A stretch of DNA of 44,882 nt from a virus (Duplodnaviria > Heunggongvirae > Uroviricota > Caudoviricetes): IMG/VR virus record IMGVR_UViG_2872678658_000005, positions 1-44,882 of that record; one strand, written 5' to 3'. The position numbers and the translations under genes were made by a program. Below are positions 1,462 to 43,984 of this stretch, piece by piece (the stretch's first letter is position 1; every line of letters starts with the position of its first letter). The notes beneath the pieces were generated by a model. That model had not been told where the DNA came from. It ran no database searches and was given only the letters and a program-made list of their open reading frames with translations.

Positions 1462-2622
1462 CACATCATTAGTACCTTCCTTATTTTTTGACTGGGACAA
1501 ATTTGGGACCGATGGGTTCAGGATCGAGTCTATTTGCCGTGCGTGTTCGGTAAGGTGATTAGGTGCAAGGTGAGCATATCGACGAACCATTTCGATAGAC
1601 TCCCAGCCTCCCATTTCCTGTAACACTGACAACGGGACTCCGGCTTGAACCAGCCAACTTGCCCAGGTGTGTCTCAAGTCGTGAAATCTGAAATCATCAA
1701 TACCAGCCCGTCTCAGCGCCGCTTTCCAGGCTGTGTTTGCGTCATACCGCATCTTCCTTACTGTTGGCGCTTTCGTTCCGTCTGGTTTGGTACAGCTTTC
1801 CTTGTACACAAATACCCAACGGTGATGATTCCCGATTTGTTTTTTCAAAACGCGACATGCAGTATCATTCAGCGCAACGCCAATTGCGCGGTTTGATTTA
1901 CTCTCTTCCGGGTTTATCCATGCCACCCGGCGCTGCATGTCTATTTGTTGCCATTCAAGGTTGATGATGTTCGAGCGTCTTAAGCCTGTTGCCAGTGCAA
2001 ATTCAACAACAGACTTTAATGGCTCCGGACATTCATCAATCAGCCTTTGTGCTTCATGGGGCTCCAGCCAGCGGATCCGTTTATTCTTTGGTTGAGGCAC
2101 TTTAATAATTGGTGCCTTATCCAGCATTTTCCATTCACGCTCTGCGGCTCTTAGTAGGGCCTTTATAAATGAAAGATGCGTAGCCTTCGTTGCAACGGAC
2201 GCTGGTTTTGGCGTGTATTCTGGAACAGGTTTCCCTTTTTTTCTGCATGCTTCTGCCCTGAGTCTCCAGTTTTCCTCATGACGCCGGTTCGTCATTTTCT
2301 GCATTGCTGAATAAATTTTTGATTCAGTAATGTCTCTTAGTTGCATTCCTGCGAAATGTTGAAGCCAGAATCCGATCCGGCTTTTGTCATCGTCCAGTGA
2401 TTTTTTATGTGCTTTCTCTTCAAGCCACCTGACACACGCTTCCTCGAACGTTATATCAGGTATTTCACCAAGTTTGCTGACCCGCCATGCTTCAGCCTTT
2501 AGCTTGTCATGGAGTTCTGTCGCCTGCCTTTTGTCCTTTGTTCCAAGAGACTGTTTAAATCTTTTACCGTTCGGCAATGTGAAACTGGCGTACCATATTT
2601 CACCTCTGCGGAAGAGTGACAT
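1459..2622 (-). CDS. int: tyrosine integrase (P22-type, 387 aa)
   Basis: ORF translation [24 protein letters not shown]... with C-terminal HDLRHTWAS...RYAHLAP catalytic region; adjacent to attL at the tRNA-Thr site that P22-like integrases use. Confidence 0.9.
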
Positions 2623-2849
2623 TTTCTTTCCTCTGTTATGCCATCACCCGCGCTCACCTGGACAGTATGCAGCGGAGACTGAAGAGCCGCAATGCAGGCT
2701 TGTCGTGTTGTGAGGTAAGGAGATTTATTCTTAGTGGGATCTTTGCGTGTTGCCTGAAGACGCCCTGTGCGTATCCAGTTAATGGCAGTCGGTCTGGATA
2801 TCTTGAGAAAATGACAGGCCTCATCGAGTGTGAGGCTGTATGGCTCCAT
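2499..2849 (-). CDS. xis: excisionase (116 aa)
   Basis: Internal ATG of ORF 2499..2933 giving [31 protein letters not shown] (Xis-type HTH); start overlaps the stop of the upstream gene (TAATG); 3' end overlaps the int start as in P22-like int-xis pairs. Confidence 0.8.
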
Positions 2850-3154
2850 TATTTCACCTCTTGCTGTGACATTGTTGAAAAATGGATACCAGCTCGTTGC
2901 TGCCAGACGATCCAACCGAGAGTCATATCCCATGCCATGTATTCGTTATTGCCGTTTTTTGCTCTCCGACGATCTACTAAGTCACCGAAACGCTTTTCCA
3001 TGAATAATTCATAAGCTTCGCGTTCATCTGGTTCTACTTCCAGAGATAGGAGTGCGATTTCATAAGCACGGCGCTCAATATCGTCTCGCACGTCAAGGCT
3101 GCTGATACGCTCTTTAATTTCTTTAATCAGTTCTTTGTCGGTAAAAGTGGTCAT
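2849..3154 (-). CDS. hypothetical early protein (YfdT-like, 101 aa)
   Basis: ORF with start/stop overlaps to both neighbours (TAATG coupling); size and position match the last gene of the CPS-53 yfdPQRST cluster. Confidence 0.6.
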   Translation of the reverse strand: MTTFTDKELIKEIKERISSLDVRDDIERRAYEIALLSLEVEPDEREAYELFMEKRFGDLVDRRRAKNGNNEYMAWDMTLGWIVWQQRAGIHFSTMSQQEVK

Positions 3155-3516
3155 TATGCTCCAGCCTCCGGTGCTTTTGGCATTACTGCCCAGTGAGTGA
3201 TATTGACGTTTTCAAGGTCCCCGACCTGAAATGTCCACTGCCATTCTCCGGTTTCTTTTTGTCCCCAGGTGTACCAGAGAGAACGCCAACCAATTAGCCA
3301 GCCTTCTCCGTTAGCATCGAATAACAAAACACTTTCATTTGCTGGTGGCAGTTCAGTTGACACTGGTATTACTTTGTTTTCCTGTGCTGCACATTTAGCT
3401 TCAAGCGCATCGAATTTACGCACCAGGTATTCAGCATCTGTTTCATTTACTTTCAGATCTCGCGGTACACATCTCCCACGAAGAAACCCTTCCATTTCGA
3501 AAACATTCATGCGCAT
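3154..3516 (-). CDS. DUF551 protein (YfdS-like, 120 aa)
   Basis: Translation MRMNVFEMEGFLRGRCVPRDL...WLIGWRSLWYTWGQKETGEWQW, typical of prophage DUF551 proteins. Confidence 0.7.
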   Translation of the reverse strand: MRMNVFEMEGFLRGRCVPRDLKVNETDAEYLVRKFDALEAKCAAQENKVIPVSTELPPANESVLLFDANGEGWLIGWRSLWYTWGQKETGEWQWTFQVGDLENVNITHWAVMPKAPEAGA

Positions 3517-40016: not shown

Positions 40017-40304
40017 ATGGATATAAGCCCCTTACTTCATGCACTTTGTGCTGTGGCTGCGCAGGTACTGGTTGGTCTTTTTACCGGAAACTGGGCTTAC
40101 GGTGCGATAGCTGGTTGTACGTTCTTCATCGCTCGTGAACATACCCAGGCAGAATATCGCTGGATTGAAATGTTCGGGCATGGCAAGCGAATGAATATGC
40201 CGTGGTGGGGCGGTTTTGATCCGCGTGCTTGGGATGTGGCAAGCCTGATGGATTTTGCTGTGCCGGTGGTGGCGTGTCTGCTGGTCTGGCTGTTGATCCG
40301 TTAA
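40017..40304 (+). CDS. small inner-membrane protein (95 aa)
   Basis: Two predicted TM segments; the 3' 120 bp has an about 85% identical paralogous fragment outside attR at about 43862-43984. Confidence 0.55.
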   Translation: MDISPLLHALCAVAAQVLVGLFTGNWAYGAIAGCTFFIAREHTQAEYRWIEMFGHGKRMNMPWWGGFDPRAWDVASLMDFAVPVVACLLVWLLIR

Positions 40305-40348: not shown

Positions 40349-40499
40349 GGCTGGTGAACTTCCGATAGTGCAAGTATTGAATGATTGCCAGTCACAGCGG
40401 ATTGTACTTAGGTAATATGACGGTTCAAGGCGTTTAAACTGAAACCATCCACATATCAGTCTCTTCAAACATTTCCTAAATCGTTCGGCTTATCTGTTC

Positions 40500-40969
40500 T
40501 TTCTCACGTTTGCTGACGTCAGTGCTGATTGCCGGCAGTGTCATCATCGGTTTTACACGATACCCTTTGCGTTGAACGAGTCGTACTACTGTAACAGCGC
40601 GTCGGTGAAGCTGCTCATCCCGACACAGGACAGTCGGGATATCATTGCAGTAGCAACGGGGAGTCTGGATGCAATATGGAAAGACGGACACCGATATCAG
40701 AAAGCCGGGGTAATGCTGGGGGACTTCTTCAGTCAGAGCATGCCCTAACCTATTCGACGATAACGCGCTGGGTCCTGGGAGCGAAAAGTTAATGAGCGTG
40801 CTGGAGCACCTCAACGCAAAAGACGGGAAGGAAACACTCTGTTTCGCTGGGCAGGGCATTCAGCAGCAGTGGCAGATGAAACGCGAGATATTTTCGCACC
40901 GGTATACAACTAGATTTTCTGGCATTTTAGGTGGTTAGATAGATATTTATGCTCTACGCAATGAATATG
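40500..40969 (+). pseudogene. 5'-truncated, frameshifted umuC-like (Y-family polymerase) fragment
   Basis: Across two or three frames the translation reads ...SVKLLIPTQDSRDIIAVATGSLDAIWKDGHRYQKAGVMLGDFFSQ / NLFDDNALGPGSEKLMSVLEHLNAKDGKETLCFAGQGIQQQWQMKREIFSHRYTTR..., matching the UmuC C-terminal region; no start codon or N-terminal polymerase domain. Confidence 0.6.
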
Positions 40970-40975
40970 AGAGAA

Positions 40976-41641
40976 TTAATTGTCTAAGCTGGTATAATAT
41001 GAATAAAGGCTTTTTCCCATTATTTTCTCTAAATCCTTTTTGTTTCTAAAGAAAATGTTTGAGATATGCTGATGATAATACTTTATAATGATTCTCATCA
41101 GCGCCGATACTACCTCATGAAGTTTTTTCACCATTTTATGCTGTGTTGAATTACAATCTCCCTCCATAAGTGATATAAATGTTGATGTAACATTTAGGTT
41201 CGCTTGGGGGGAGGAGTGAACATAATAACAGGCGTTAATATAGACATTATGTAAATAAGACCAGCCTTCATCGACTTGTTGGGCTTTTAAGAAGTCAAAG
41301 TCTCTACGACGTACAGTTTGGTCAAAATCCCCACCATTGTAGTTCTTATTGAGGCTTATTCTGGCCACATGCTCCACCATTGAGCGGAAGTTCAGTTGGA
41401 GATACCGTTCTCTTTTTTTTATAATGGCAATTAAGGAGTTTAAGGTATCATATATAAAACCTTTTATATAAGAAGAGTGATTTAGATTAGGATTGTGACT
41501 TAAAATTGTATTACAAAGACTTATTTGCCTAAATATTGATACTGATTTGTTTATTTCATCAGTGGTTCTGAGGTGCTTTTGCACCTCCGCTCTAAAATAA
41601 TTTACATCTCTTCCAATGTTGAAGGGATCCTGCGTGAGCAT
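40976..41641 (-). CDS. hypothetical protein (221 aa), third gene of the AT-rich operon
   Basis: Start overlaps the stop of the upstream gene (TAATG); no domain recognised; contains RSMVEH and RIIIKYYH (Rx4-6H-like) stretches. Confidence 0.6.
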   Translation of the reverse strand: MLTQDPFNIGRDVNYFRAEVQKHLRTTDEINKSVSIFRQISLCNTILSHNPNLNHSSYIKGFIYDTLNSLIAIIKKRERYLQLNFRSMVEHVARISLNKNYNGGDFDQTVRRRDFDFLKAQQVDEGWSYLHNVYINACYYVHSSPQANLNVTSTFISLMEGDCNSTQHKMVKKLHEVVSALMRIIIKYYHQHISNIFFRNKKDLEKIMGKSLYSYYTSLDN

Positions 41642-42039
41642 TATTCTTCTTCCTTTTTATTTGCATTAATCCAAATATTTAAATTCCTTATAGCATGCTT
41701 GCTTTTAGATGTGGATTTTTGGCTTGTTTTATTTGCATCATTAAAAATAATGTCTAATGTGTTAATGTTGTTTAAGAAATGCGTATAAGCCATCTTTATG
41801 TCATTCTCACTTAATTCATTAATATGTTTGCAAATTTTAGCGCACATCAAAGTTCTTGACCGTACAGCATAATTCAAAAAAGATATTTTGAAGGTTTTGT
41901 TAATAAATTTACTAACATCAAAATTTGATCTAAAAACCTCTTTTGAAAGAATCAACATAATTACCAAGCCTAAGAAGTTTTCTTTGGTCATGGGCATATT
42001 GTTAGCTTTATTGATCGCTTTAATTAATTGTTTATTCAT
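41641..42039 (-). CDS. hypothetical protein (132 aa), second gene of the AT-rich operon
   Basis: Overlaps the ParA-like gene stop by 8 nt; hydrophobic segment FLGLVIMLILS; Lys-rich C-terminus. Confidence 0.6.
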   Translation of the reverse strand: MNKQLIKAINKANNMPMTKENFLGLVIMLILSKEVFRSNFDVSKFINKTFKISFLNYAVRSRTLMCAKICKHINELSENDIKMAYTHFLNNINTLDIIFNDANKTSQKSTSKSKHAIRNLNIWINANKKEEE

Positions 42040-42877
42040 TTGTGTTACCTTCCAAGTGAGCCACTCTGTTAATAAATTCGTTACAGATCTTTTCTATATC
42101 TTGGCGTGACTTTGAATAACAAGAAGGAATATTTCCTTGATAACCTACCATTAAATCACGCACGTAGGTTAATTGATTTTCAAAGAAATAAAAATTTGTA
42201 AATTGAGTATGGTTTTCGAATTGTTCTTTAATTTCCCTTGTTTTATTGGTCATTTCAGCATCAGTGTTTGTATAAATGTAACCGACTTGCTTGATTTCTT
42301 TCTCATGATGTGTGCGCATATTTCTTATAACGCTATTTAAACTGCTTGCTCCAAGCACCGAGTAGTGATCAATTTTAACCGGAGTAAGATAATAATCAGA
42401 AGCAAGGAGTGCGGTATCTGTAAATAATGATATTGTTGGGGGGCTATCGATAAAGATATAGTCGTAACTTTCTTTTAAGTCATTTTCGGTGATGAATTTA
42501 CGCAACATTTTTATTCTAATACCCTCTTGGTTAGTATCAAAGATAATGTTTATATCACCTAAGATAATATCAAGATTGTCTGAAACTTTAGTAATGACCT
42601 GTTCTGGTGTCACTTTCTTTTCATCTTCCATTAATGAATTTGGAAGCTCAAAAATCTTTCGAATGGTTTGATTATTAGGGCGAAGGGCAGTCATATATTC
42701 TTCTACTCGATCATAATGCCCCATTAAGGACTGAGTGGCATTAAATTGAGGATCAATATCGATAACTAGAACCTTGTGCCCCATATGGTTGGCTAAAAAC
42801 TCAGCAATCCCAACGCATAAAGTTGTTTTACCAACCCCACCTTTCATATTGATAAAACTAATTACTGGTGCAGTCAT
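42032..42877 (-). CDS. ParA/MinD-family P-loop ATPase (281 aa)
   Basis: Deviant Walker A KGGVGKTT near the N-terminus, DIDPQ and IFIDSPP motifs; AAGGA RBS; palindromic operator-like sites (GTGAA-N5-TTCAC, ATGC-N5-GCAT) in its upstream region. Confidence 0.8.
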   Translation of the reverse strand: MTAPVISFINMKGGVGKTTLCVGIAEFLANHMGHKVLVIDIDPQFNATQSLMGHYDRVEEYMTALRPNNQTIRKIFELPNSLMEDEKKVTPEQVITKVSDNLDIILGDINIIFDTNQEGIRIKMLRKFITENDLKESYDYIFIDSPPTISLFTDTALLASDYYLTPVKIDHYSVLGASSLNSVIRNMRTHHEKEIKQVGYIYTNTDAEMTNKTREIKEQFENHTQFTNFYFFENQLTYVRDLMVGYQGNIPSCYSKSRQDIEKICNEFINRVAHLEGNTNE

Positions 42878-43424
42878 TTTTTCATCCTTAATTATGTAGT
42901 GTGAAATAGATTCACTATGCTGAAAGCATTTTTTAGCTTAATTTTTATACTGCGCGTTGACTTATCACCCTATCATATATGATTTTTAGGTGTTGCATAG
43001 ACTGGTTTTATATCAGGGGCTTAGGTTGTATGTGGCGTCACAGAATCACTAATCATTGAACTTTGTACATGTAACGGTCAGGTTAAATAATATATAATGG
43101 GTTGTTAAGTTGGCTCTCTGATTCCTGATGCCCCAAGGACGCGCGTCATTGCGTGCCAGATTAACTTTTCGGCGGGCACAGTGCTATCGGCAATTATTTC
43201 CTCAGCCTCTTTCCCGCATAGGTCTTGGCGCATCCATTTTCTTGCTATGAAATCTCCAGCCGGTCAGACTGAAAGTATAGAAGAGAATATGCGAATCGCT
43301 GTTCCGGTGTTTCTGGGAGAGCTTATGTCGGAGTAATTCCCCGGTAATTGAATCTCTTTTGCTCGCTCATAACAGACATTCACTACAGTTATGGTAGAAA
43401 GTATGTATGCTGATTGGGGAAAGT

Positions 43425-43624: not shown

Positions 43625-43687
43625 ATTCGTAATGCGAAGGTCGTAGGTTCGACTCCTATTATCGGCACCATTTAAATCAATAAGTTA
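43625..43687 (+). repeat. attR core (partial thrW 3' copy)
   Basis: Second copy of the 63-bp repeat; the tRNA 5' half is absent, so the intact thrW is the attL copy. Confidence 0.8.
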
Positions 43688-43815
43688 TCTCACATTTAAG
43701 TAAACTACGTTCTCCTCTTGTGCCTTTGATTTTGCTCGCGTGCGCGGTGAAATGCCTGACTGAAAGGTGAGCATATCGACGAACCATTTCGAGAGTTTCC
43801 CATCTGCTCATTTTT
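43688..43815 (-). pseudogene. integrase 3'-end remnant outside attR
   Basis: AAGGTGAGCATATCGACGAACCATTTCGAGAG matches the int 3' end at about 1565-1605 (35 of 39 nt); reads ...[13 protein letters not shown]... on the minus strand with no upstream gene body. Confidence 0.55.
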
Positions 43816-43861
43816 AAGTGCAAGCAGGAAAACACCGGACTAAACCAATCAGCTGTTCGAA

Positions 43862-43984
43862 AATGGCAAGCGGATTAATATGCCATGGCGGGGCAGCTTT
43901 GAGCCGCACGCATGGGGTGTGGCAAGCCTGATGGATTTTGCTGTGCCTGTGGTGGCGTGTTTGCTGGTTTGGCTGTTGGTTAAA
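43862..43984 (+). pseudogene. 3' fragment paralogous to the 40017-40304 membrane protein gene
   Basis: About 85% identical to 40180-40304 (...NMPWRGSFEPHAWGVASLMDFAVPVVACLLVWLL...); no 5' part. Confidence 0.5.

Follow-up and report, generated by a model that had tools for sequence, protein, structure and literature searches.

The 44,882-nucleotide IMG/VR virus record IMGVR_UViG_2872678658_000005 (Caudoviricetes), analysed at its full length and called the window below, carries an AT-rich operon of three minus-strand genes that are homologous to remA, remI and remN of Salmonella. The operon is very probably a RemAIN-family system, a prophage-borne three-component module of abortive infection and prophage competition. 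Judged by its sequence, it would be a diverged Escherichia coli member of this family, and of a kind already known since 2024. Reportedly, RemAIN was described in that year by Sargen & Helaine (Cell Host Microbe, doi 10.1016/j.chom.2024.10.012) as a defence and prophage-competition system of Salmonella Typhimurium 14028. The three genes of the window are as follows.

42032..42877, minus strand: remA homologue, encoding a 281-aa ParA/Soj-type deviant-Walker-A ATPase (defined by open reading frame and Pfam match)
41641..42039, minus strand: remI homologue, encoding a 132-aa all-helical small protein
40976..41641, minus strand: remN homologue, encoding a 221-aa all-helical HEPN-like nuclease candidate

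A sequence-only reading of the window had described a tight, AT-rich operon in the slot between tail fibre and prophage end, with a ParA/MinD ATPase as its first product and two products that it could not recognise, and all of these points held. The reading frames overlap by 8 nt (281-aa/132-aa) and by 1 nt (132-aa/221-aa), the GC content is 0.29-0.37 in the block against about 0.43-0.51 in the flanks, and the annotation of an identical E. coli record confirms the position. The 281-aa product matches Pfam AAA_31 (E=7.6e-38) and CbiA (E=5e-17), and the three ATPase motifs can be read in its translation. The 132-aa and 221-aa products match no family in Pfam, NCBIfam or PADLOC-DB 2.0.0 and belong only to the function-less phrog_6264 and phrog_7540. 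PADLOC with the same database release returned only P-loop-level noise for the locus; RemAIN was published in 2024, after PADLOC-DB 2.0.0 (2023), and is absent from that library.

Relationship to RemAIN of Gifsy-1

The remAIN locus is an anti-phage cluster of three genes (STM14_3218-3220) within the Gifsy-1 prophage's immunity region in S. Typhimurium 14028, and it blocks the lytic cycles of both co-resident prophages and incoming phages (PMC12724215). The RemA ATPase, the RemI immunity protein and the RemN HEPN nuclease form one functional unit (PMC13043305). RemN is listed among the HEPN nucleases that act on tRNA anticodon loops (PMC12409363), and ST64B is inhibited by Gifsy-1 via the tRNA-cleaving product of remN (PMC12626290). 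This published composition fits the window trio gene for gene.

The window was compared with a Salmonella locus, L002, in which a homologous trio lies directly after a cI-like repressor gene. Seven genes from the trio, between replication genes and dinI, L002 contains a 210-aa open reading frame (2581-3213, minus strand) that has 11 of the 11 residues published for HepS (STM14_3211; PMC13043305) at the positions stated there, namely G19, Y20, F66, K71, K78, L83, R100, N101, H105, I107 and S202. When genes are counted from HepS, 3212 falls on a deoxynucleoside triphosphate (dNTP) pyrophosphohydrolase, 3213 on P, 3214 on O, 3215 on cII, 3216 on cro, 3217 on cI and 3218-3220 on the trio. The residue match and the gene count thus indicate that L002 is a 14028-type Gifsy-1 prophage carrying RemAIN. 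Full-length BLASTP alignments between the window and L002 proteins gave 65% identity for RemA (E=4e-141), 31% for RemI (E=2e-21) and 49% for RemN (E=6e-88), and an R-x4-H motif occupies the same position (R86-x4-H91) in both RemN proteins. Homology, a conserved architecture, a mobile-element context and retained motifs are directly observed for the window trio.

The two systems are alike in gene order, in their overlapping junctions, in prophage carriage and in the position of the R-x4-H motif. They differ in that the Gifsy-1 genes sit directly after cI, whereas the window copy is found in the cargo region between tail fibre and attachment (att) site, behind an upstream region of its own. The phenotypes were established on the Gifsy-1 system, and the E. 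coli version, described here from its genes, has a highly diverged RemI.

By homology to Gifsy-1 RemAIN, RemN would be a ribonuclease of HEPN type. By cleaving tRNAs in their anticodon loops it would stop translation, and its trigger would be a competing phage or a co-resident prophage turning lytic. RemI would be the cognate, antitoxin-like immunity partner that holds RemN silent, and RemA would form a functional unit with both. Since all ParA catalytic motifs are kept and the N-terminal third of RemA is nearly invariant, RemA probably works as an ATP-dependent dimerising switch, or may serve as a sensor. We infer expression and activity for the E. coli copy; because its RemI is only 31% identical to that of Gifsy-1, it may respond to a different trigger. 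Its defence phenotype, its tRNA target and what each component does would be as in the Salmonella literature, carried over by homology. The defence-type accessory operon proposed from the sequence alone gains support here, the homologous Salmonella RemAIN having been shown experimentally to be an anti-phage and prophage-competition system. The accompanying view that the module was undescribed had to be given up, since it matches a named system (RemAIN, 2024), a result that the sequence-only reading had itself listed as telling against it.

The current annotation, a 'ParA family protein' followed by two hypotheticals, invites misreading of the operon as a partition system. The RemAIN-type assignment gives it a likely function, that of a tRNA-nuclease abortive-infection and prophage-competition module, which matters for the host range of therapeutic phages and for the induction of prophages in clinical E. 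coli, Klebsiella and Enterobacter. The comparison also yields data that could guide mechanistic work, in the form of an obligate trio found across phyla, components that differ in evolutionary rate, a set of invariant residues and a HEPN histidine that is not conserved. The interest of the family lies mainly in its cross-phylum distribution and in the non-canonical conservation pattern of RemN.

Conservation and co-occurrence of the three proteins

RemA comprises a KGGVGKTT motif at residues 12-19 (signature K12, P-loop K17/T18), DIDPQ at 40-44 and a Walker B motif, IFIDSPP, at 141-147. The signature lysine, the Walker A' Asp and the Walker B Asp expected of a ParA/MinD (SIMIBI) ATPase are all present. 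Its closest sequence relatives in the PDB are Soj and ParA (6iub, 3e-18), and it bears the PHROG label 'ParA-like partition protein'. The N-terminal VISFINMKGGVGKTTL...DPQFN.TQ is kept from E. coli to Bacillus and Staphylococcus, within an N-terminal third that is nearly invariant from E. coli to Staphylococcus.

The suggestion of a HEPN-type RNase had been based on two stretches of the 221-aa protein, of which one stands. RSMVEH (R86-x4-H91) is invariant in the enterobacterial clade; RIIIKYYH is not conserved. Across the family, the invariant residues of RemN are R86, E90, Y134 and H142 (88 representatives, alignment A2), which lie on two different helices, and they hold in members from Enterobacterales, Bacillus, Staphylococcus and metagenomes. 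Bacillus RemN proteins have RSLLENFH (Rx6H), and those of staphylococci and several other Firmicutes have no His within the motif window; in these alignments the canonical HEPN histidine is limited to the enterobacterial clade. Neither the RemN query nor any of 87 family members has a match in Pfam, and a sequence search of the PDB with RemN profiles A1 and A2 gave no relevant match.

RemI is a six-helix bundle with no ribbon-helix-helix (RHH) or helix-turn-helix (HTH) ParB match. Its family-invariant residues are G24, N39, F45, Y57, S61, R62, T63, L64, A67, A116 and W123, several of them within the motif Y..[RK]SRTL..A[KR]. It is the fastest-evolving component, well ahead of RemA and RemN, and such quick divergence would fit arms-race pressure on this protein.

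Copies of the operon that are at least 99% identical were found in 52 of 5426 complete E. coli genomes (about 1%), and a diverged variant in 16 further E. coli genomes, including O103:H2 strains. The close relatives of the 221-aa protein form 31 clusters, all from Enterobacterales. When 1.84 billion proteins were searched exhaustively with a RemN profile, about 100 representatives were recovered, most of them by far close to 220 aa in length. The layout around them is recurrent, with a ParA-type ATPase, a 110-170-aa protein and a 215-260-aa protein joined by overlapping or abutting junctions. All 47 loci fetched from the RemN side show the A-I-N order with tight junctions, and the same layout surrounds four RemN members of only about 20% identity. 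From the RemA side, both partners were found by hidden Markov model (HMM) in 69 of 80 viral loci; of the 11 others, eight have the same gene-size pattern and three are truncated where the contig ends. A solo RemA-like gene was found in none of the 80 viral loci with RemA motifs. In the informative loci examined, the trio is an obligate unit and always lies in cargo slots of integrative elements; co-occurrence had been proposed as a check on the operon, and the genes indeed stay together in mobile-element contexts.

These contexts extend well beyond lambdoid prophages. The trio adjoins integrases in Dickeya and in Yersinia intermedia. In the Bacillus pumilus group (L008-L010, 4320-5165 and neighbours) it stands at the lysis/tail-fibre end of a PBSX-like prophage, a site that corresponds, in Gram-positives, to the cargo slot at the prophage end. 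A trio of very distant relationship (313, 111 and 226 aa; L049/L050, 4732-6681) immediately follows walK-yycH-yycI-yycJ-rlmH and is followed in turn by a 302-aa gene and by N6/N4 DNA methyltransferase, DUF1643, DUF960 and SAUGI genes, a gene content from which the site is apparently the staphylococcal orfX/SCC (staphylococcal cassette chromosome) integration site. No GenBank phage record matched the system at the DNA or protein level, and it was found only in prophages and in IMG/VR proviruses. The neighbours of the Bacillus trio include SUKH-family immunity genes and a holin plus amidase lysis cassette.

Surroundings of the operon in the window

The operon is carried by a lambdoid prophage: the genes immediately upstream encode tail tip J and tail fibres, and downstream lies the host gene yagU. 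In the annotated twin record the genes follow in the order tail tip J, tail fibres, a 95-aa gene, a dinI fragment, a C-terminal umuC fragment, the trio, a fragment of an SOS-response-associated peptidase (SRAP) gene, an integrase fragment and host yagU. The features that flank the trio are given below.

40171-40295, plus strand: left copy of a 125-nt direct repeat, at the 3' end of the 95-aa membrane-protein gene after the tail fibre
40476-40562, minus strand: dinI pseudogene fragment
40557-40938, plus strand: umuC pseudogene fragment (DUF4113 C-terminus)
43105-43245, minus strand: SRAP pseudogene fragment
43685-43839, minus strand: integrase pseudogene fragment, annotated in the identical E. 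coli record
43854-43978, plus strand: right copy of the 125-nt direct repeat, 86% identical, adjoining the integrase fragment

The repeat copies share 28 of 35 residues at the protein level and enclose a 3.7-kb segment, dinI'-umuC'-remAIN-SRAP'-int'. The repeat resembles either an att scar left by a nested integrative element or the junction of two prophages. In the Enterobacter counterpart (L012-L014) the cargo is intact and consists of umuD-umuC, the trio and SRAP; the window is thus a decayed version in which only the trio is still whole, an SOS-related cargo set that has decayed around a preserved defence operon.

Upstream of remA, the following elements were located.

42878..43104, minus strand: the operon's 5' untranslated region with its putative promoter
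42889-42885, minus strand: Shine-Dalgarno sequence AAGGA upstream of remA
42916-42900: short palindrome AGTGAAtctatTTCACa upstream of remA
42929-42917: short palindrome ATGCTttcAGCAT upstream of remA
42982-42973: perfect 10-bp palindrome TCATATATGA, about 100 nt upstream of the remA start

This upstream region is conserved only with the near-identical Enterobacter type. The two palindromes close to the ATG, which had been taken to suggest autoregulation, do exist but are degraded even in the closest Enterobacter relative, and comparison thus lends no support to autoregulation. TCATATATGA is kept in the Enterobacter relative and absent from more distant loci. In Salmonella L002 the operon starts 58 nt past the cI-like repressor gene.

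In some E. coli strains, such as p10A (NZ_CP049081.1, L022 13257-15146), the slot between tail fibre and att site also contains a 629-aa DUF262 (GmrSD/DndB-like) gene that directly adjoins the dinI'-umuC'-remAIN segment, and after it comes a second integrative element. The p10A cargo marks the slot as a variable defence hotspot.

Competing readings and related systems

Several observations weigh against the RemAIN assignment or against some part of it. The tie of the window to STM14_3218-3220 is indirect and passes through L002 only, by way of the HepS residues, the gene numbering and the published composition. Plasmid-borne Salmonella RemAIN gave no restriction of phage FO1 in an LT2 background (PMC12724215), from which it appears that RemAIN activity can depend on host or phage. 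The window operon is not coupled to a cI gene, promoter-like matches upstream of remA did not exceed shuffled expectation, and the neighbouring dinI, umuC, SRAP and integrase sequences are all pseudogene fragments. Insertion sequences (IS) interrupt remA or remN in four of the 52 E. coli copies, in three separate events. As to the nuclease, a Foldseek comparison with the PDB gave no significant HEPN match for RemN (best E 0.29), no Pfam HEPN family matches any of 87 RemN family members, and 67 of the 88 representatives have Asn in place of the HEPN His at position 91.

Because R86, E90, Y134 and H142 are invariant while the His is mostly Asn, the RemN family is possibly not canonical HEPN. Catalysis could in that case take place at a separate R/E/Y/H site, and the Rx4H of the enterobacterial clade would be a lineage-specific addition. 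The E. coli copy may differ from the Salmonella prototype in trigger or target, as the conservation pattern of RemN, the fast divergence of RemI and the occurrence of the system in an apparent SCC element and in PBSX-like prophages also suggest. We regard this view of RemN as possible but doubtful.

It is improbable that the window operon is a RemAIN-derived relic, silent or non-functional in E. coli and kept only through recent arrival. The decayed neighbours, the loss of the cI-proximal position of Gifsy-1, the lack of a convincing promoter in the scan against shuffled expectation and the IS elements in remA or remN would all fit a relic, and an identity of at least 99% among the E. coli copies implies that there has been little time for decay. 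The three frames are nevertheless full length against their homologues, and every family-invariant residue and the ATPase motifs are intact. A Shine-Dalgarno sequence and translational coupling are retained, and the trio is unbroken in 48 of the 52 E. coli copies. The own-promoter arrangement is moreover conserved in Enterobacter and Klebsiella, whose neighbouring genes are intact.

The insertions bear as well on a second alternative, according to which the operon is mainly an addiction (toxin-antitoxin) module that stabilises a mobile element, with phage defence incidental. In E. coli they are IS903B in remA, IS1A in remN and IS3 in remN (L019 NZ_CP025950.3; L020 NZ_OZ501671.1; L021/L022 NZ_CP049081.1), and Dickeya L004 (CP109768.1) has IS1 in remA; in this very small sample of interrupted E. 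coli and Dickeya copies, none has an insertion in remI alone with remN intact. This is the pattern one would expect if RemI restrains a toxin, in a tiny sample where polar effects are possible. An immunity protein paired with a nuclease resembles toxin-antitoxin logic, and the module is always found on integrative elements. The Salmonella system, however, is reported to act in defence and in competition between prophages, an obligatory ATPase is foreign to simple toxin-antitoxin pairs, and the rexAB-like cI-proximal and tail-fibre-to-att positions are classical defence slots, so that a mainly addictive role is very unlikely.

Least credible of all is a type Ib plasmid-style partition cassette, decayed or functional, made of ParA and a small centromere-binding partner and left over from a plasmid or phage-plasmid, which the sequence-only reading had put forward as its main alternative: RemA is a genuine ParA/Soj-type ATPase with Soj and ParA as closest PDB relatives and a partition label in PHROG, and one RemN match lies on a record filed as a plasmid, but no iterated centromere-like repeats surround the operon, the small protein is a six-helix bundle without RHH or HTH-ParB match, the third, nuclease-like gene is obligatory in all loci, and the NCBIfam partition equivalogs score far under their cut-off (77 bits vs 180). 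The plasmid match is the only one among 72,556 plasmid records (NZ_CP148393.1, L011, pZ1323HEC0010-3). Although filed as a 44.6-kb non-mobilizable plasmid, it represents the whole circular genome of a lambdoid phage (int, ymfK/L/T, J, lom, tail fibre) with a diverged remAIN variant between tail fibre and int, whose RemN is 37.6% identical to that of the window; the same variant is chromosomal in O103:H2 strains. Known type Ib ParA/ParB systems (ParF-ParG of TP228, delta-omega of pSM19035, Soj-Spo0J) have the ATPase fold and deviant Walker A motif in common with RemA, but comprise a centromere and an RHH or HTH partner. The window trio has neither, includes a nuclease-like third gene and is virtually absent from plasmids.

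The RemAIN assignment may further be set beside other defence systems. Menshen (NsnABC) was considered as a three-gene system whose paper mentions ParA, and it shares the logic of sensor, ATPase and nuclease effector. In Menshen, however, the ATPase NsnB is of the ABC type, NsnA is a ParB-DUF262 protein, and NsnC combines an inactive PIN domain with a nuclease; none of the three window proteins is homologous to a Menshen component, and the window trio, whose ATPase is ParA-type, has no DUF262 component. The ABC ATPase and the ParB-DUF262 component rule it out. The DefensePredictor preprint makes no mention of ParA.

GiPD474, from Gifsy-1 of S. Typhimurium 4/74 (PMC12724215), resembles RemA in being a prophage-encoded ParA/MinD/Soj-type ATPase with a GGVGKT motif. 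It occupies the slot that remAIN has in other Gifsy-1 variants and reduces the plating of T4, FO1 and Alf5 (PMC12724215). Unlike the window trio, it consists of one gene, whose 361-aa product has an extra domain, and it lacks an immunity partner and a nuclease partner. The remAIN cluster is reported to have no homology to the gipd474-bearing immunity region of Gifsy-1 4/74 (PMC12724215).

HepS (STM14_3211; PMC13043305) is comparable to RemN as a prophage-encoded HEPN tRNA anticodon nuclease that acts by abortive infection. Unlike RemAIN, it is a single self-sufficient protein activated by the siphovirus tail-tip protein J (PMC13043305). Our searches detected no sequence relationship between HepS and the 221-aa family, and HepS works independently of RemAIN on different tRNA targets (PMC13043305). 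Two different HEPN tRNA nucleases, HepS and RemN, are thus encoded in one prophage, L002, in line with the literature.

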